In this document: piece by piece, positions 50,392 through 54,205 of the stretch | Numbering within the stretch: the stretch's first letter is position 1 | Layout of the letters: every line of letters starts with the position of its first letter | Virus record (IMG/VR): IMGVR_UViG_3300049432_000174 | Coordinates: 1-54,696 of that record | DNA: 54,696 bases | DNA from: a virus | Taxonomy: Duplodnaviria > Caudoviricetes | Strand: one strand, 5' to 3' | Position numbers and translations under genes: made by a program | The notes under the pieces: model-generated | Seen by the model: only the letters and a program-made list of their open reading frames with translations | What the model was told of the DNA's origin: nothing | Database searches by the model: none

Positions 50392-50613
50392 TCATGAACA
50401 CCGAGGGCAGGGCACGAGACCGGGCTGTACGGCCCTGTGACAGGAGCAGGGGCACACTTCGGCCCTGGCTTCGGCAAGGAGCCGGCGGGCCTCCTCGGGG
50501 CCAATCATGTCTTCTCGGAGGATCTTGTCGAGGAGGCTGATGGCGCAGTCGTGATGGGCGCGCCAGCAGTTCTGCCAGTGGGTGCCCTGGCGTTCGTCAG
50601 CGGGCGAGAGCAC
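50392..50613 (-). CDS. Small Cys/His-rich hypothetical protein
   Basis: THWQNCWRAHHDCA. Confidence 0.55.
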   Translation of the reverse strand: MLSPADERQGTHWQNCWRAHHDCAISLLDKILREDMIGPEEARRLLAEARAEVCPCSCHRAVQPGLVPCPRCS

Positions 50614-50915
50614 AGACCGCCTCCACCTCGCCGAGGAGCTGATCCCACCTCGGTCCGTGAGGTTCTCTTCCCGCCACGGTGATCTTGGCCTCGTCCACGG
50701 CCCTTCTTCCGCTCCCACTCGGACTCCTCCTCCCGGCGGGACTTCTGGATCTTGAGTTCCTCGACTTCGGTCCGCAGTCCGATGGCCTCCTCGGCCAGCT
50801 TCCGGCGGTCGGCGATGGCGTCGTGCTCGCCCTTGAGGGCAGCGACTTGCTTGGACAGCCGGCGCACCTCCTCGAGCAGCTCCTGGGCCACCGGATCGGT
50901 CTGGCTCTTGAACAC
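50597..50915 (-). pseudogene. Coiled-coil protein, probably frameshifted
   Basis: Coiled coil to ..EWERKK, then protein-like text continues in another frame. Confidence 0.35.
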
Positions 50916-50916
50916 G

Positions 50917-51153
50917 TCAGCTCCCTTCTTCTGAAATAGACCCGTCGATACGCGCGCTCGGATGGTCGACCGTCGTCCAGATAGCGGCGAAGTCGTGGTT
51001 GCCCCAGCAGTCGGGCTCGTAAAGGTGGTCGCCGTCGTGTTTTCGGTACTTGAGGCAGCGCCAGTCCGTCCCAAACGGGCCTAGCTGCCACTGGTGACAA
51101 CGGTCGGGGAAGAGGGTCCGGGCAAAGCTGTCCATCCAAGTGAAGGCTCTCAC
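50917..51153 (-). CDS. Hypothetical protein
   Basis: RCLKYRKHDGDH; ends RIDGS. Confidence 0.55.
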   Translation of the reverse strand: MRAFTWMDSFARTLFPDRCHQWQLGPFGTDWRCLKYRKHDGDHLYEPDCWGNHDFAAIWTTVDHPSARIDGSISEEGS

Positions 51154-51575
51154 GTCGCCTCTCCAACCCCGTCGATCAGTTGCAGGCGGCGCAGGTACTC
51201 AGCGGCCCAGCGACGGCGGTCGGGGTGGGTCAGTACGTCCTCGATGAAGTCCTTGATGAGGCTGTCCATTTGAGGTCCGGCCTGGATGATCTGCCCGCCA
51301 TGCTTCGTCAGGGCGTTGAGGATCTGGCCCTCTAGGTTGAGCATGAGATCGGCCTCGGAGAAGTCTTCAAGAACGTACTCCTCGGGGTGGCGGTAGAACA
51401 AGGTCGTCTCGATGTCGGTGAACTCGGGGTCGAGTCGCGCCTGGCAGTAGCGGCAACGGTTCTGGGAGCGGTACCAGCGAATGTCTTCGATCGTGTCGAG
51501 ATACATCCAGCGGAGCGCCCGCCAGCACTGCCAACCGAGACCGACCATGGCTACCGCCAGCACGATCTCAACCAT
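51150..51575 (-). CDS. TM/zinc N-terminus fused to a copy of the 550-774 protein
   Basis: C-terminal half identical to ORF 550-774. Confidence 0.65.
   Translation of the reverse strand: MVEIVLAVAMVGLGWQCWRALRWMYLDTIEDIRWYRSQNRCRYCQARLDPEFTDIETTLFYRHPEEYVLEDFSEADLMLNLEGQILNALTKHGGQIIQAGPQMDSLIKDFIEDVLTHPDRRRWAAEYLRRLQLIDGVGEAT
51169..51372. repeat. 204-bp direct repeat of 566-769
   Basis: Four mismatches seen, protein unchanged. Confidence 0.9.
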
Positions 51576-51738
51576 GGTCAACCCCGTCGATCAGGGCGGC
51601 CCTGGCCTCAATGAGGCCCTGGTACCAGCAGTTGTAGAGCCAGGCTTCCAGGTCCTTCTCGGACAGCTCTCCGAGGCGTCCGAGGACCGCCTCGCATTCC
51701 TCCACCAATCGCTCCAGGGCCACACGCTCGGCGCTCAT
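51568..51738 (-). CDS. Small hypothetical protein
   Basis: MSAERVALE..ALIDGVDHG. Confidence 0.55.
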   Translation of the reverse strand: MSAERVALERLVEECEAVLGRLGELSEKDLEAWLYNCWYQGLIEARAALIDGVDHG

Positions 51739-51947
51739 TGGGAGCCGTCGATCAGTACGTTGCACAGGACACAGATGCCGTCCTCGTCAAGGTCGTGCTC
51801 GCAGTACCGGGTAGGGCAGGCAGTCTCGTGACGGGTCTCGTCGCCCCCGCACCCGGGGCATACATAGTCGGCGTTGTCAGGCATGAGGATCACCGTCGTA
51901 CTGTTCGCCCACCTCGGCAGCGACTCGGCAGCGTCGGCAGTCCTCAC
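51735..51947 (-). CDS. Small Cys-rich hypothetical protein
   Basis: CPGC..CVLC; ends VLIDGSQ. Confidence 0.55.
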   Translation of the reverse strand: MRTADAAESLPRWANSTTVILMPDNADYVCPGCGGDETRHETACPTRYCEHDLDEDGICVLCNVLIDGSQ

Positions 51948-52010
51948 AGATGGTGGGTTCGGGTCCGTCGCCGTGACCCCAGATGCGTCCGCAGTCGATG
52001 CACTTGAACA

Positions 52011-52244
52011 TCATCGGGCGCCGTCCTCACCGTCGGAATGGTCGGTCCACCAGCGGGCCTGCCGGTGCTGGAGCGGGTAGGCGGCGATCACGGCGTGGGT
52101 TGGCCCGCAGGCGCTCTCTCGGAAGGGCTGTCCGCACTGGGTGCAGGGCGGCATGAAGGCGTCGACCATCGCCATGAGCCGAGCGAGGGCCTGCTTGACC
52201 TCGTCGTAGTCGGCCAGGCGGACGGTGACCTCAGCCTTCGCCAT
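52011..52244 (-). CDS. Small zinc-binding hypothetical protein
   Basis: MAKAEVTV..CTQCGQPFRESACGPTH. Confidence 0.55.
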   Translation of the reverse strand: MAKAEVTVRLADYDEVKQALARLMAMVDAFMPPCTQCGQPFRESACGPTHAVIAAYPLQHRQARWWTDHSDGEDGAR

Positions 52245-52270
52245 CGCCGATCCTCCCGTCGCTCTGGATC

Positions 52271-52756
52271 TCAGGCATCTTCGCCACGCTGGCTCCCGTC
52301 GTTCAGTCGCTCGCATTCGGCGGCTTCGTACATCGTTGCGTGGCGATGCTCAGGGTCCTGGAGGGTCCGCTGGCATGCGAAGGTGTCGCCTTCCCCAGGA
52401 CCGTCGGAGTGTGCGGCCTGCCGCTTCTCGTGCTCGACCCACTTGTTGGCCGCATCGACCAGTTCCTGAAGGGCGTTGATCCCTGGGAGCATGATGTCGA
52501 TTTGCGTGCCGTGCATCCTCAGAACCGTTTGCCCATACCGCTCAACGTCGAGCGTGAACTTCATCGGGGACAGGACGACAGACTTGCGGGCATCGAAGGG
52601 TTGCCACTCATCGAACTCACGGTGACCGTCGAGGCTGACCGAGAAGGGTTCTACTGATTCGGCGTACCGGGGAGGGTCGTCGGGGCAAGGGTCCTTGTCG
52701 TCGTAGGGCTCGCCGTGAGGGCAATACCCTGCGACTGATCCGGCGTCCTGGGTCAT
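52271..52756 (-). CDS. Hypothetical protein
   Basis: MTQDAGSV..; ends RLNDGSQ. Confidence 0.55.
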   Translation of the reverse strand: MTQDAGSVAGYCPHGEPYDDKDPCPDDPPRYAESVEPFSVSLDGHREFDEWQPFDARKSVVLSPMKFTLDVERYGQTVLRMHGTQIDIMLPGINALQELVDAANKWVEHEKRQAAHSDGPGEGDTFACQRTLQDPEHRHATMYEAAECERLNDGSQRGEDA

Positions 52757-52956
52757 GATTTGGTCCCGTCGATCAGGAGCACCGGGCCGTAGTTTCCGGC
52801 GACTCTTGTCCATGATTCGGTGTCGTCATCTATGTCGTCGCCGACCTGGGCCCAGGAGCGGCGGCCCTCCTCGAATCTGCGCCAGCGGCGGCCTTCGCAA
52901 TCAACCACTACCGACCCGACGGGAGGCTCGGGATCGGTGGACGAGAGCTTCGTCAT
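52753..52956 (-). CDS. Small hypothetical protein; 5' part repeated at 1-94
   Basis: EPPVGSVVVDCEGRRW..NYGPV; ends LLIDGTKS. Confidence 0.65.
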   Translation of the reverse strand: MTKLSSTDPEPPVGSVVVDCEGRRWRRFEEGRRSWAQVGDDIDDDTESWTRVAGNYGPVLLIDGTKS

Positions 52957-53150
52957 GGCTCCAGTGTCCCAGCGTCACCCGAACCGTCGTTGAGTAGCAC
53001 CTCGGAGCAGATCGTCGTCGTACCTGCCACAATCGTGGGCTCGGGTGGGTAAAGCGGACGACCACACTTGTGGCAGCAACCGTTTGGTGCCGGGACGTGT
53101 TCGGCCCAGGGGCACTCCTGGTCGTAGTCCTCACCGTCGTACCGTCCCAT
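52953..53150 (-). CDS. Small Cys-rich hypothetical protein
   Basis: Shares C-terminal DGSGDAGTLEP with ORF 91-306. Confidence 0.5.
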   Translation of the reverse strand: MGRYDGEDYDQECPWAEHVPAPNGCCHKCGRPLYPPEPTIVAGTTTICSEVLLNDGSGDAGTLEP

Positions 53151-53443
53151 CACGCCTCCCGGGGGCCGTCGAGGTGCCCGGCGTGGTCCTGAGGTGAGTT
53201 GCAACCAGCCTCGTCACAGGCGAGCCAGTCGAAGACCTCAGGTGAAGCAACAGGAATGCCTGACAAACGATCGTCGGGGCCATCCTTGATGCCGCACCAC
53301 TCACGAAGGGCGGGGCGCTCAAGCGCCATCTGCGCCCGTTTCGCTGCCCGGAGGCACTCTCCGACCACCCTGGCGGCGGGCATGTCGGCCTTGATGTTGG
53401 CTTTGTCGAGTTCCATCTTGAACTGCTCGTAGAAGTCGGCCAT
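53150..53443 (-). CDS. Hypothetical protein
   Basis: Coupled ORF. Confidence 0.55.
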   Translation of the reverse strand: MADFYEQFKMELDKANIKADMPAARVVGECLRAAKRAQMALERPALREWCGIKDGPDDRLSGIPVASPEVFDWLACDEAGCNSPQDHAGHLDGPREA

Positions 53444-53769
53444 TAGCGCACCTCCCGGCTGACGTGGAGAGGGAGCATCGGCAGCAGGCAGGCCACAGAT
53501 CGAACCTCCAGGGGGTCCGTTTCCAGAACACCCCGACCCAGCAATCCTGCGGCTTCCATTCGAGGCGGATCACCCACAACCACTTGTCGGTGAAGATCGA
53601 CAGACGCCTGTGGGACAGGTCGAGGGGCCACACCGGTTCGGCTGGACGGTGGTTCTCGGGGATGTCTAGGCGGCCCATGTTGTGACCTCTCATGAGGGTG
53701 CAGCCGAAGCTGCCACATCGCTCGAAATCGACACCCTCAACCATTGGTTCACTCCGTACTAAATCGGCG

Positions 53770-54021
53770 CTACTCACCAGAACCACCCCCGTCGTTGTGA
53801 AGCAGGGCCTCGATCCACACGGCCTTCGTGGGGTCGTCAACCTGATCAAATCCAACCCAGGCTCCGAAGCAACCAGTGGGGTGGGGGATGTCATCGAAAG
53901 CATTGGTGACGTAGTAGCCGTCGCTCTTGCTCACCGTGGTGATGCGGGCGGTGTCAGTCACCTTGGTGCCCCAGTGGACCAGCACGTCGTCGTTGACCTT
54001 GCGTACAGCGCTATCGGGCAT
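53770..54021 (-). CDS. Hypothetical protein
   Basis: Coupled ORF; ends HNDGGGSGE. Confidence 0.55.
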   Translation of the reverse strand: MPDSAVRKVNDDVLVHWGTKVTDTARITTVSKSDGYYVTNAFDDIPHPTGCFGAWVGFDQVDDPTKAVWIEALLHNDGGGSGE

Positions 54022-54205
54022 CCGCGTCTCCGTCGTTGAGTCGCTGCTGATCCAGGCGGGCGAAGAACTCGTCGCACACCTTCTCGGCCAAGCAATCGCA
54101 GGTGGGCAACCGAACTGGCCCGTTCATCTTCACGACGACCTCGGTCGGAGCGCCGCACTCAGGGCACACACTCTCGGCGATCAATCTGGGGTCGTCGGTT
54201 GACAT
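54011..54205 (-). CDS. Small zinc-ribbon protein
   Basis: CPECG..CDC; ends RLNDGDADAR. Confidence 0.5.
   Translation of the reverse strand: MSTDDPRLIAESVCPECGAPTEVVVKMNGPVRLPTCDCLAEKVCDEFFARLDQQRLNDGDADAR

Follow-up and report, generated by a model that had tools for sequence, protein, structure and literature searches.

The window studied here is a whole IMG/VR contig of 54,696 bp (IMGVR_UViG_3300049432_000174), classed as linear and with an estimated completeness of 67%, which belongs to a temperate soil phage. Two runs of small genes in this window share a short word close to the 3' ends of their genes, CTGATCGACGG (core CGACGG, read as ..-D-G), and we propose, with a probability somewhat below one half (about 0.45), that this word is an in-frame seam for the short-homology exchange of translationally coupled accessory genes. 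The word is enriched in the runs, it keeps a fixed frame and position at the gene ends, it is conserved at the nucleotide level, and edges of homology fall on it. A role in expression in addition to exchange is possible, the two being compatible. The whole case is built on a single contig of metagenomic origin and on a few protein fragments.

The right-hand run (50392-54205, minus strand), delimited from the open reading frames (ORFs) and curated starts, contains about 14-15 small, tightly packed genes of 45-161 amino acids, and most neighbouring genes overlap by 1-11 nucleotides (nt). The left-hand run (1-2574, minus strand) contains 11 small genes and a second copy of gene 52753-52956 that is represented by its first 31 codons. 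All the genes of both runs lie on the minus strand, in a single orientation. The motif statistics given below were obtained from 25 curated small genes, with curated starts, and their 24 junctions. The products of these genes have 45-161 amino acids and different cysteine patterns, and similarity at E < 1e-3 was found in only 3 of the 300 pairs formed by the 25 proteins; the genes are thus mostly unrelated, as a previous reading of the DNA made without database searches (the sequence-only reading) had stated. Searches of Pfam and PHROG gave no family for ten genes of the right-hand run, and Pfam gave nothing above cut-off in the 10 of 11 genes of the left-hand run that were scanned (550-774 was left out). 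With respect to ORFan status, the 20 small-gene proteins scanned had no Pfam or PHROG family, and three small genes that were searched gave no full-length homologue beyond the query's own entry. For genes 51150-51575 and 52753-52956, only self-matches were obtained in a set of 5.8 billion proteins at the lengths searched.

The motif proposed by the sequence-only reading, CCGTCGWTSAG, occurs exactly ten times in the window, always on the plus strand, while 100 dinucleotide shuffles gave a mean of 0.35 and a maximum of 2. Nine of the ten exact matches are in the two small-gene runs, seven of them at 50.4-54.2 kb and two at the left end (0.1-2.6 kb). The remaining one, at 29882, runs antisense to a glycine-rich gene encoded on the plus strand and was discarded as a chance match. 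On the minus strand the motif reads L-(I/N)-D-G near the C-terminus, which is the peptide that the sequence-only reading had seen at the end of many small genes, and all the copies that it listed were found in the sequence. Its remark that the full sequence is missing from the core modules was borne out as well, as CCGTCGATCAG was found six times in forward and never in reverse orientation, with no copy between 794 and 51168.

The enrichment was also compared with the codon background, as that reading had suggested. Within the 25 small genes the near-equal 11-mer was observed ten times versus 0.04 after codon shuffling, and the 8-mer A[AT]CGACGG 13 times versus 0.7. Since the 11-mer is so scarce in the codon shuffles, codon background does not explain the motif, and a codon-bias artefact was ruled out by these shuffles together with the analysis of synonymous sites. 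The 8-mer is present 13 times in the two runs versus 6 times in the other ~49 kb. As a control, 1.34 Mb of other viral loci with a G+C content of at least 0.60 (300 strand-loci) were analysed, and they gave at most 5 gene-end hits per 3-kb window versus 12 here. Finally, pattern scans of IMG/VR (at least 119 loci in one scan, 95 and 25 in others) showed, among the matches listed, scattered single hits in long genes and no comparable run.

All copies in the runs lie on the minus strand. From right to left, the exact copies of the right-hand run are located at 54030-54040 (RLNDG followed by five residues and the stop, with the next ATG 8 nt away), 52984-52994 (LLNDG plus nine residues, at the upstream edge of the block common to the left end of the contig), 52766-52776 (LLIDG plus three, next ATG 9 nt away), 52296-52306 (RLNDG plus seven, next ATG 51 nt away, with a second, weak core at 52256-52266), 51745-51755 (VLIDG plus two, with an ATGA overlap with the next gene), 51584-51594 (ALIDG plus four, next ATG 8 nt away) and 51169-51179 (QLIDG plus five, at the downstream edge of the 204-bp repeat described below). 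Copies with one mismatch stand at 53789-53799 (LHNDG plus five, next ATG 44 nt away) and 50942-50952 (ARIDG plus seven). A further weak copy is found at 53166-53176 (GHLDG plus four, with GGGAGG before the next ATG), and copies of the core only at 52030-52040 (DHSDG plus five) and 51893-51903 (EQYDG plus four, next ATG 8 nt away). The left-hand run, a second run that the sequence-only reading had missed, carries exact copies at 783-793 (ELIDG plus five, next ATG 8 nt away) and 122-132 (ELIDG plus nine, at the edge of the terminal 127-bp repeat), a copy with one mismatch at 566-576 (QLIDG plus four, at the edge of the 204-bp repeat), core copies at 1293-1303 (PWIDG plus three, next ATG 9 nt away) and 1132-1142 (AQDDG plus four, next ATG 8 nt away), and one more copy at 1936.

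An in-frame C-GAC-GG is present 2-9 codons before the stop at 18 of the 24 junctions, and the word never departs from the reading frame of the gene upstream. In 15 of these 18 cases the stop and the next start overlap, by 1-11 nt. Between GACGG and the next start there are 6-9 nt at nine junctions (precisely 8 nt at six of them) and 15-51 nt at the remaining nine; the earlier observation that the motif often precedes the next start by 9-10 nt is therefore approximately right for one half of the junctions and fails for the other half. GAC is preceded by C in every one of the 18 cases, and the residue encoded there can be N, I, L, S, Y, G or D, while the background of C at third positions is 49% overall and 64% before internal Asp codons. 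In addition, Asp is encoded by GAC (background 79%) at each of the 19 terminal DG sites with GAC GGN, a count that excludes three secondary sites with GAT located at the very C-terminus. CTG serves for Leu in 8 of 11 cases (background 29%); for Gly, GGG is used at 9 of 19 sites (background 21%) and GGC at 3 of 19 (background 46%). As the C before GAC is maintained despite seven different residues, and codon choice at Leu, Gly and Asp is biased too, the constraint is on the nucleotides; conservation acts at this level and in a fixed frame. The invariant core is CGACGG and the fuller consensus is CTGATCGACGGg. Its fixed frame makes the word unlike a free-standing DNA or RNA site.

Comparison of the contig with itself revealed two long repeats that involve the runs. 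In the first one, 51169-51372 (minus strand) is 98% identical to 566-769. This 204-bp repeat is the 3' half of gene 51150-51575, reused as the 74-amino-acid gene 550-774, and its identity passes through the word and ends 2 nt after the core, the tails being different (VGEAT versus EADG). In the second one, 52863-52989 (minus strand) is 100% identical to 1-127, the identity ending after CCGTCG, within the motif. This 127-bp repeat includes the start of gene 52753-52956, a 27-nt leader and CGACGG, it ends 2 nt upstream of the core, and it presents the same downstream gene and the same tail, SGDAGTLEP, behind two different upstream genes. When pairs of motif copies were extended from the core with one mismatch allowed, the pair 51176/573 reached more than 125 nt upstream and 2 nt downstream, and for the pair 52991/129 the values were 2 nt upstream and 121 nt downstream, where the contig ends; every other pair extended for 12 nt or less. 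The two repeats therefore display the same body with a different tail and a different body with the same tail.

The evidence from other assemblies was obtained at the protein level. An exhaustive search with gene 52271-52756 (minus strand) gave three small proteins that match its first 35 residues only, a cysteine- and proline-rich module (G-Y-C-P-H-G ... D-P-C-P-D) with 76-79% identity, and that end in RLIDGADS, EQFDGGDDSA and EQIDGSITERTDG. A second search added three further proteins (six in all). Among them, P0004 and P0007 have a common N-terminal module and the tail SITERTDG, with a different middle part up to IDG. P0005 and P0006 carry the middle domain of P0004 up to ..FYSEQIDG and diverge directly after it, their frames extending 43 and 38 residues, respectively, beyond DG. 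P0006 runs on in frame into a cysteine-rich unit ending in QYDG plus four residues, and this continuation indicates that two units were fused at the seam. Across the alignment of the six proteins the only invariant columns are one Ala, the D and the G. D-G is thus kept in these proteins, with F or Y at the preceding position. Similarity switches at DG in all three comparisons, events which may have a common history.

The assembled contigs of one public run that holds the stretch (run X1) were also examined. They show a depth of about 14-17 across 50504-52815 and of about 25 across a 195-bp paralogous piece, with flanking values of 8.2 over 52960-54504 and 8.6 over 49000-49785. This doubled depth indicates that the block 50504-52989 is present in two contexts at equal depth, and the block is bounded upstream by the word at 52984. 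In 50440-50503 there is also a second haplotype with about half the depth and 13 differing positions, and a contig break with an overlap at 50918-50947 ends at the CCGTCG of copy 50942. These data fit a 2.5-kb repeat in one genome, a circle of ~52.9 kb with a variant branch (52990-54696), or two strains. A joint from 51372 to 53747 was set aside, as it has just 23 letters on one side. The contigs give no cover at 50140-50329 and 54510-54696, and no inference was drawn from these parts. Since run X1 is possibly the source sample of the contig itself, it does not provide independent support.

On the proposed explanation, the unit that travels would consist of a tail of 2-9 codons closing the previous ORF, sometimes a Shine-Dalgarno site, a start, the body of an ORF and the seam, much as the sequence-only reading had drawn it. 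Crossover would take place between two seams, either within one genome or between related phages or prophages. Since all seams have the same frame and orientation, such a crossover joins any upstream ORF to any downstream unit and leaves both intact. The upstream ORF would adopt the incoming tail and stop, and the incoming ORF would retain its own start context; an incoming sequence without an early stop would occasionally yield a fusion, of which P0006 may be an example. The exchange would proceed through rare short-homology events followed by selection for intact genes, and the seam might spread because each unit gained in this way carries one. The agent could be annealing by the RecT/exonuclease pair of the phage or, alternatively, template switching between short direct repeats. 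Rad52-like and RecT recombinases are described as building phage mosaics on short and diverged homology, with a minimal pairing segment of 23-27 bp for Red-beta (De Paepe 2014).

Several observations weigh against this explanation. Identity at the seams amounts to 8-16 nt, below the 23-27 bp given for Red-beta, so such events would have to be rare and would be visible only because selection keeps the intact recombinants. Copy-and-paste alone leaves the cleanness of the 11-nt word unexplained, and 6 of the 24 junctions lack the core. The homology edges come from only two internal repeats and three protein comparisons, the latter possibly non-independent, and whether synteny breaks fall at the motif was assessed inside this contig and at the protein level. 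The other repeat edges lie off the motif, at 51372 in the middle of a gene and at about 50504 at a gene end without motif, and the 127-bp repeat runs off the contig end; this end repeat may reflect a two-strain assembly graph, in which case the contig could be chimeric. In addition, the module common to 52271-52756 and P0002-P0004 ends at Y-A-(D/E), away from the seam, and so exchange also occurs within genes. The idea that the motif marks the place of exchange consequently survives in part: relatedness does switch at the motif in both repeats and in the three protein comparisons, but motif-to-motif cassettes are not established because the other edge of each repeat is elsewhere.

Known signals were looked for at the word. 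A Shine-Dalgarno variant, which had been named as a possible complete explanation, was rejected: the word contains neither GGAG nor AGGA, only three of the five positions of its GACGG can pair with CCUCC, and its distance to the start ranges over 6-51 nt. Canonical AGGAGG and GAAGG sites serve other genes of this phage. Where the word and the start are 15-51 nt apart (nine junctions), there is usually a purine-rich site in between; at the nine with a spacing of 6-9 nt there is no other purine-rich site, and the starts probably rely on coupling to the overlapping stop. A hairpin of the attC type was also discarded, as 70-nt folds centred on the motif average -21.0 kcal/mol versus -21.4 in 626 windows tiled over the runs, with no common structure. 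Six loci (four right-hand, two left-end) were scanned for an inverted partner and contained no complement of W-CGACGG, and no half-site pair was found for the word, which is a single asymmetric word with every copy in direct orientation. Finally, a scan for one promoter type (sigma-70-like) and for terminators gave neither on the coding strand between the genes of the runs, the sole exception being a weak promoter-like match at the far end of the right-hand run. The same scan found no promoter-like site at the head of this run, and the divergent region 54206-54252 contains no copy of the motif.

Some of these results bear on other explanations of the word. It could be an expression signal only, that is, an mRNA signal for start or coupling, or an asymmetric binding site for a protein or RNA factor of phage or host that regulates early genes, the homology edges being a by-product. 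We consider this unlikely. The single orientation of the word, its restriction to non-structural small genes, its closeness to starts, the conservation of nucleotides and the 6-9-nt junctions, where nothing else purine-rich precedes the start, all agree with such a signal, and asymmetric repeats of 13-18 bp near starts, with roles described as unknown, are reported to be common in actinobacteriophages. However, the word has no Shine-Dalgarno core, and canonical sites stand at other genes and at most of the 15-51-nt junctions. Its distance to start and stop varies and its frame never does, a constancy that an RNA or DNA site would not need, and edges within 2 nt of the core in both repeats are not predicted. 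An improbable alternative is that selection acts on the peptide, a C-terminal linear motif (hydrophobic/Asn)-Asp-Gly that would give the small proteins a common partner, fate or localisation. The frame fixed in 18 of 18 cases, the D-G retained in the proteins of other assemblies and its position always 2-9 residues from the end, P0005 and P0006 excepted, would be expected of a peptide. Nevertheless, seven kinds of residue precede Asp with a third base that is always C, the synonymous choices for Leu and Gly deviate from the usage of the genes themselves, the tail after DG varies in length and content, and the 20 proteins scanned fall into no Pfam or PHROG family.

The sharpness of the edges (within 2 nt) and the very clean core could also be the work of a dedicated enzyme, either the tyrosine recombinase next to the run or a nuclease or recombinase still to be recognised among the small genes, that cuts and joins at the core in the manner of an integron or a shufflon, an option to which we attach a low probability. 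All the sites have one orientation, and by the published figures general recombination would not be efficient on so short an identity. Moreover, the sequence-only reading was right in placing a second tyrosine recombinase beside the array. This gene (49118-50114, minus strand) lies directly downstream of the right-hand run, with its catalytic part in ORF 49118-49591 (Pfam Phage_integrase, E 8e-23). However, its N-terminal part is in another frame (ORF 49005-50114), and the run-X1 contig over 49000-49785, with zero differences from the window, agrees exactly with this split. No inverted partner, half-site pair or hairpin accompanies the word, and no excision product was seen among the run-X1 pieces listed, the lone joint mentioned above being unreliable. 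With a direct asymmetric word and an ordinary, two-frame recombinase downstream of the array, the integron-like site-specific exchange suggested by the sequence-only reading is not upheld. In the strongest form of the idea, which appears equally doubtful to us, the runs would be a gene-capture platform and the 11-nt in-frame core (L-I-D-G) the crossover point of a dedicated, still unrecognised enzyme; if this were true, small genes would be inserted, excised and fused without hairpin sites, in a way that differs in kind from integrons and PeSLs. Finally, the small genes might be old tandem duplicates and the C-terminal word the last remnant of their ancestor, with no role in exchange. The same frame, orientation and near-3' position throughout the runs fit common descent, and so do two weak pairs of relatives (E 8e-6 and 4e-5) found besides the obvious paralogue. 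Nevertheless, 297 of the 300 pairs are dissimilar, the products range from 45 to 161 amino acids with different cysteine patterns, and a neutral remnant would not be better preserved than the rest of the gene at synonymous sites, all of which makes descent alone very improbable.

Other features of the small-gene runs were recorded. Genes 53319-53744 and 53150-53443 (both on the minus strand) overlap by 125 nt, the largest overlap of any pair in the run, which may stem from a frameshift, a true stop located earlier or a wrongly called start. M-P-D opens the products of four small genes, at 51884, 1638, 1123 and 54021 (minus strand), that are otherwise unlike one another, and the 5' ends of the units may also have short words in common. 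A 22-nt, A+T-richer word is present twice with one difference (0 expected), at 1423-1444 and 53747-53768 (minus strand). The copy at 53747-53768 is in the 25-nt gap just ahead of the start of gene 53319-53744; the copy at 1423-1444 is inside the 5' end of gene 1280-1459, and its ATG opens a different frame, ORF 1084-1428. In G001, an unrelated high-G+C phage contig of 52,994 bp that shares no DNA and 3 weak protein matches with the window, about 13 plus-strand genes were picked by eye from the ORF list. Three of its small genes end in QFDGTTA, RIDGSGAGGSMGE and LIDGLPIAPTD, which is a weak hint and not evidence, and one small gene of G001 starts with M-T-D-N-A-E-Y-V, similarly to the M-P-D genes. 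A possible HNH-type endonuclease, judged by eye, is encoded at 2083-2565 (plus strand; L150) of G001 among small genes, three of which end in (F/I)-D-G and a short tail.

The contig has a G+C content of 63-74% and carries nearly all its genes on the minus strand. Pfam placed genes for portal, protease, capsid, tail tube and amidase, and WhiB-type and Pup-like genes point to an actinobacterial host. The RecT-family annealing protein (6346-7290, minus strand; Pfam RecT, E 1.2e-42) is a candidate agent of the short-homology exchange; an RNase_T-family exonuclease (9240-9827) and a first integrase-family gene (15330-16787) were also assigned by Pfam. The terminase large subunit (43234-45897, minus strand; Pfam) contains a LAGLIDADG homing-endonuclease domain at residues 286-358, ahead of the part matching the ATPase model (435-575), and this insert is probably an intein; the closest matches of the terminase found in IMG/VR and metagenome contigs lie mostly in this part (residues about 91-534). 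The match to the Pup (prokaryotic ubiquitin-like protein) family is in gene 17856-18179 (minus strand; E 8e-12) and covers residues 41-107 of a 107-amino-acid frame. At 11985-14675 (minus strand) a single frame of 880 amino acids joins DEAD/Helicase_C helicase domains with an N6/N4 DNA methylase domain. The regions 23137-23673, 35837-36600 and 29900-32300 show tandem or dispersed internal repeats with 76-90% identity, in two large minus-strand genes, and a glycine-rich collagen-like stretch that, as read by eye, is apparently on the plus strand.

No cultured phage is closely related to this one. A blastn search of the region against GenBank phages gave zero matches, and tblastn with the portal gave a best identity of 28%, with Arthrobacter and Gordonia phages; tblastn with gene 52271-52756 had zero matches. 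A portal search of IMG/VR found zero relatives. The SNF2 helicase fragment has IMG/VR relatives that are 27-36% identical in 11 of 12 loci, the twelfth matching 20 residues only, and these 12 loci contain zero full copies of the motif. The terminase has relatives with 38-42% identity in one IMG/VR locus and four metagenome loci, and none of the five has motif runs. Scans with two alignments (A1 and A3) against viral, metagenome and genome contigs found nothing.

Among the systems compared, as their sources describe them, the PeSL cassette is the closest in logic. The PeSL cassettes of T4-type phages were reportedly treated by Comeau and co-workers in 2014. A PeSL combines a sigma-70 promoter with a stem-loop terminator, is intergenic and is conserved over nearly 100 bp; gene gain, loss and replacement between related genomes end at the motif, the units are shuffled by recombination between its copies, and mini-circles have been demonstrated (Arbiol et al. 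2010, PMC2839356). As in the runs described here, a repeated motif lies between small ORFan genes of variable regions and the units bring their own expression signals. However, by that account the primary function of a PeSL is known and its identity suffices for homologous recombination, whereas the 11-nt word is inside ORFs, in a fixed frame, without promoter, terminator or hairpin. Short conserved boundary sequences are said to have been proposed originally from lambdoid phages. The closest single event in the sources compared is that of genes 67 and 68 of Island3, a Cluster I mycobacteriophage, which have ~50 bp and 18 C-terminal residues in common, interpreted as recombination at a short boundary sequence and as the first such case in mycobacteriophages; the same article states that no such sequence can be identified at the majority of mosaic boundaries (Pope et al. 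2011, PMC3029335). There too, neighbouring genes are alike in their C-terminal residues and the underlying DNA, but the case is a single pair with ~50 bp, in contrast to a word of 6-11 nt at 18 junctions.

Repeats close to starts offer another comparison. The SAS of Cluster K mycobacteriophages has an AGGAG core located 3-7 bp from the start (Pope 2011, PMC3203893), and short asymmetric motifs near starts are described in Microbacterium phages of clusters EC, EF, EG and EI (PMC7302621). SAS and the EF repeats resemble the word in being asymmetric, in one orientation, associated with non-structural genes and close to starts. The word differs from SAS as reported there in having no AGGAG core, in lying 6-51 nt from the start and in keeping the frame of the upstream gene. 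Stoperators are asymmetric sites of ~13 bp with one orientation with respect to transcription, found at gene junctions and in both genome arms, which match the operator of the repressor. They have been described in Cluster A mycobacteriophages (PMC3203893, PMC3029335). They are similar to the word in being asymmetric junction sites with one orientation relative to transcription, but here 9 of the 10 exact copies are in the runs, the frame is fixed, and no operator copy or repressor was identified. With integrons, the runs have in common the promoterless small genes in the same direction, a recombination-associated site at the 3' end and a tyrosine recombinase beside the array. However, the attC site of an integron is found outside the ORF and forms a hairpin from its imperfect inverted repeats, and the runs contain no hairpin of this type or inverted copies of the core; an IntI-type integrase, attI and Pc were not identified in the contig, where a gene of the Phage_integrase family is at the downstream end of the array. 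Shufflon sites are asymmetric, inverted and flip segments, whereas all copies here are direct. A search of open-access papers and preprints turned up no in-frame coding junction word of this kind.

These results touch on an old debate, namely whether phage mosaics arise through short conserved boundary sequences or through random joining followed by selection. In this contig one short word, conserved at the nucleotide level, recurs at 18 junctions in one frame, with homology edges on the word. If relatives confirm this pattern, the contig would be a clear example of gene exchange at a seam that lies in coding sequence and preserves the frame. Turnover and fusion within runs of ORFan genes, with translational coupling kept, would then have an explanation, and exchange units in high-G+C phages could be recognised by a simple marker.

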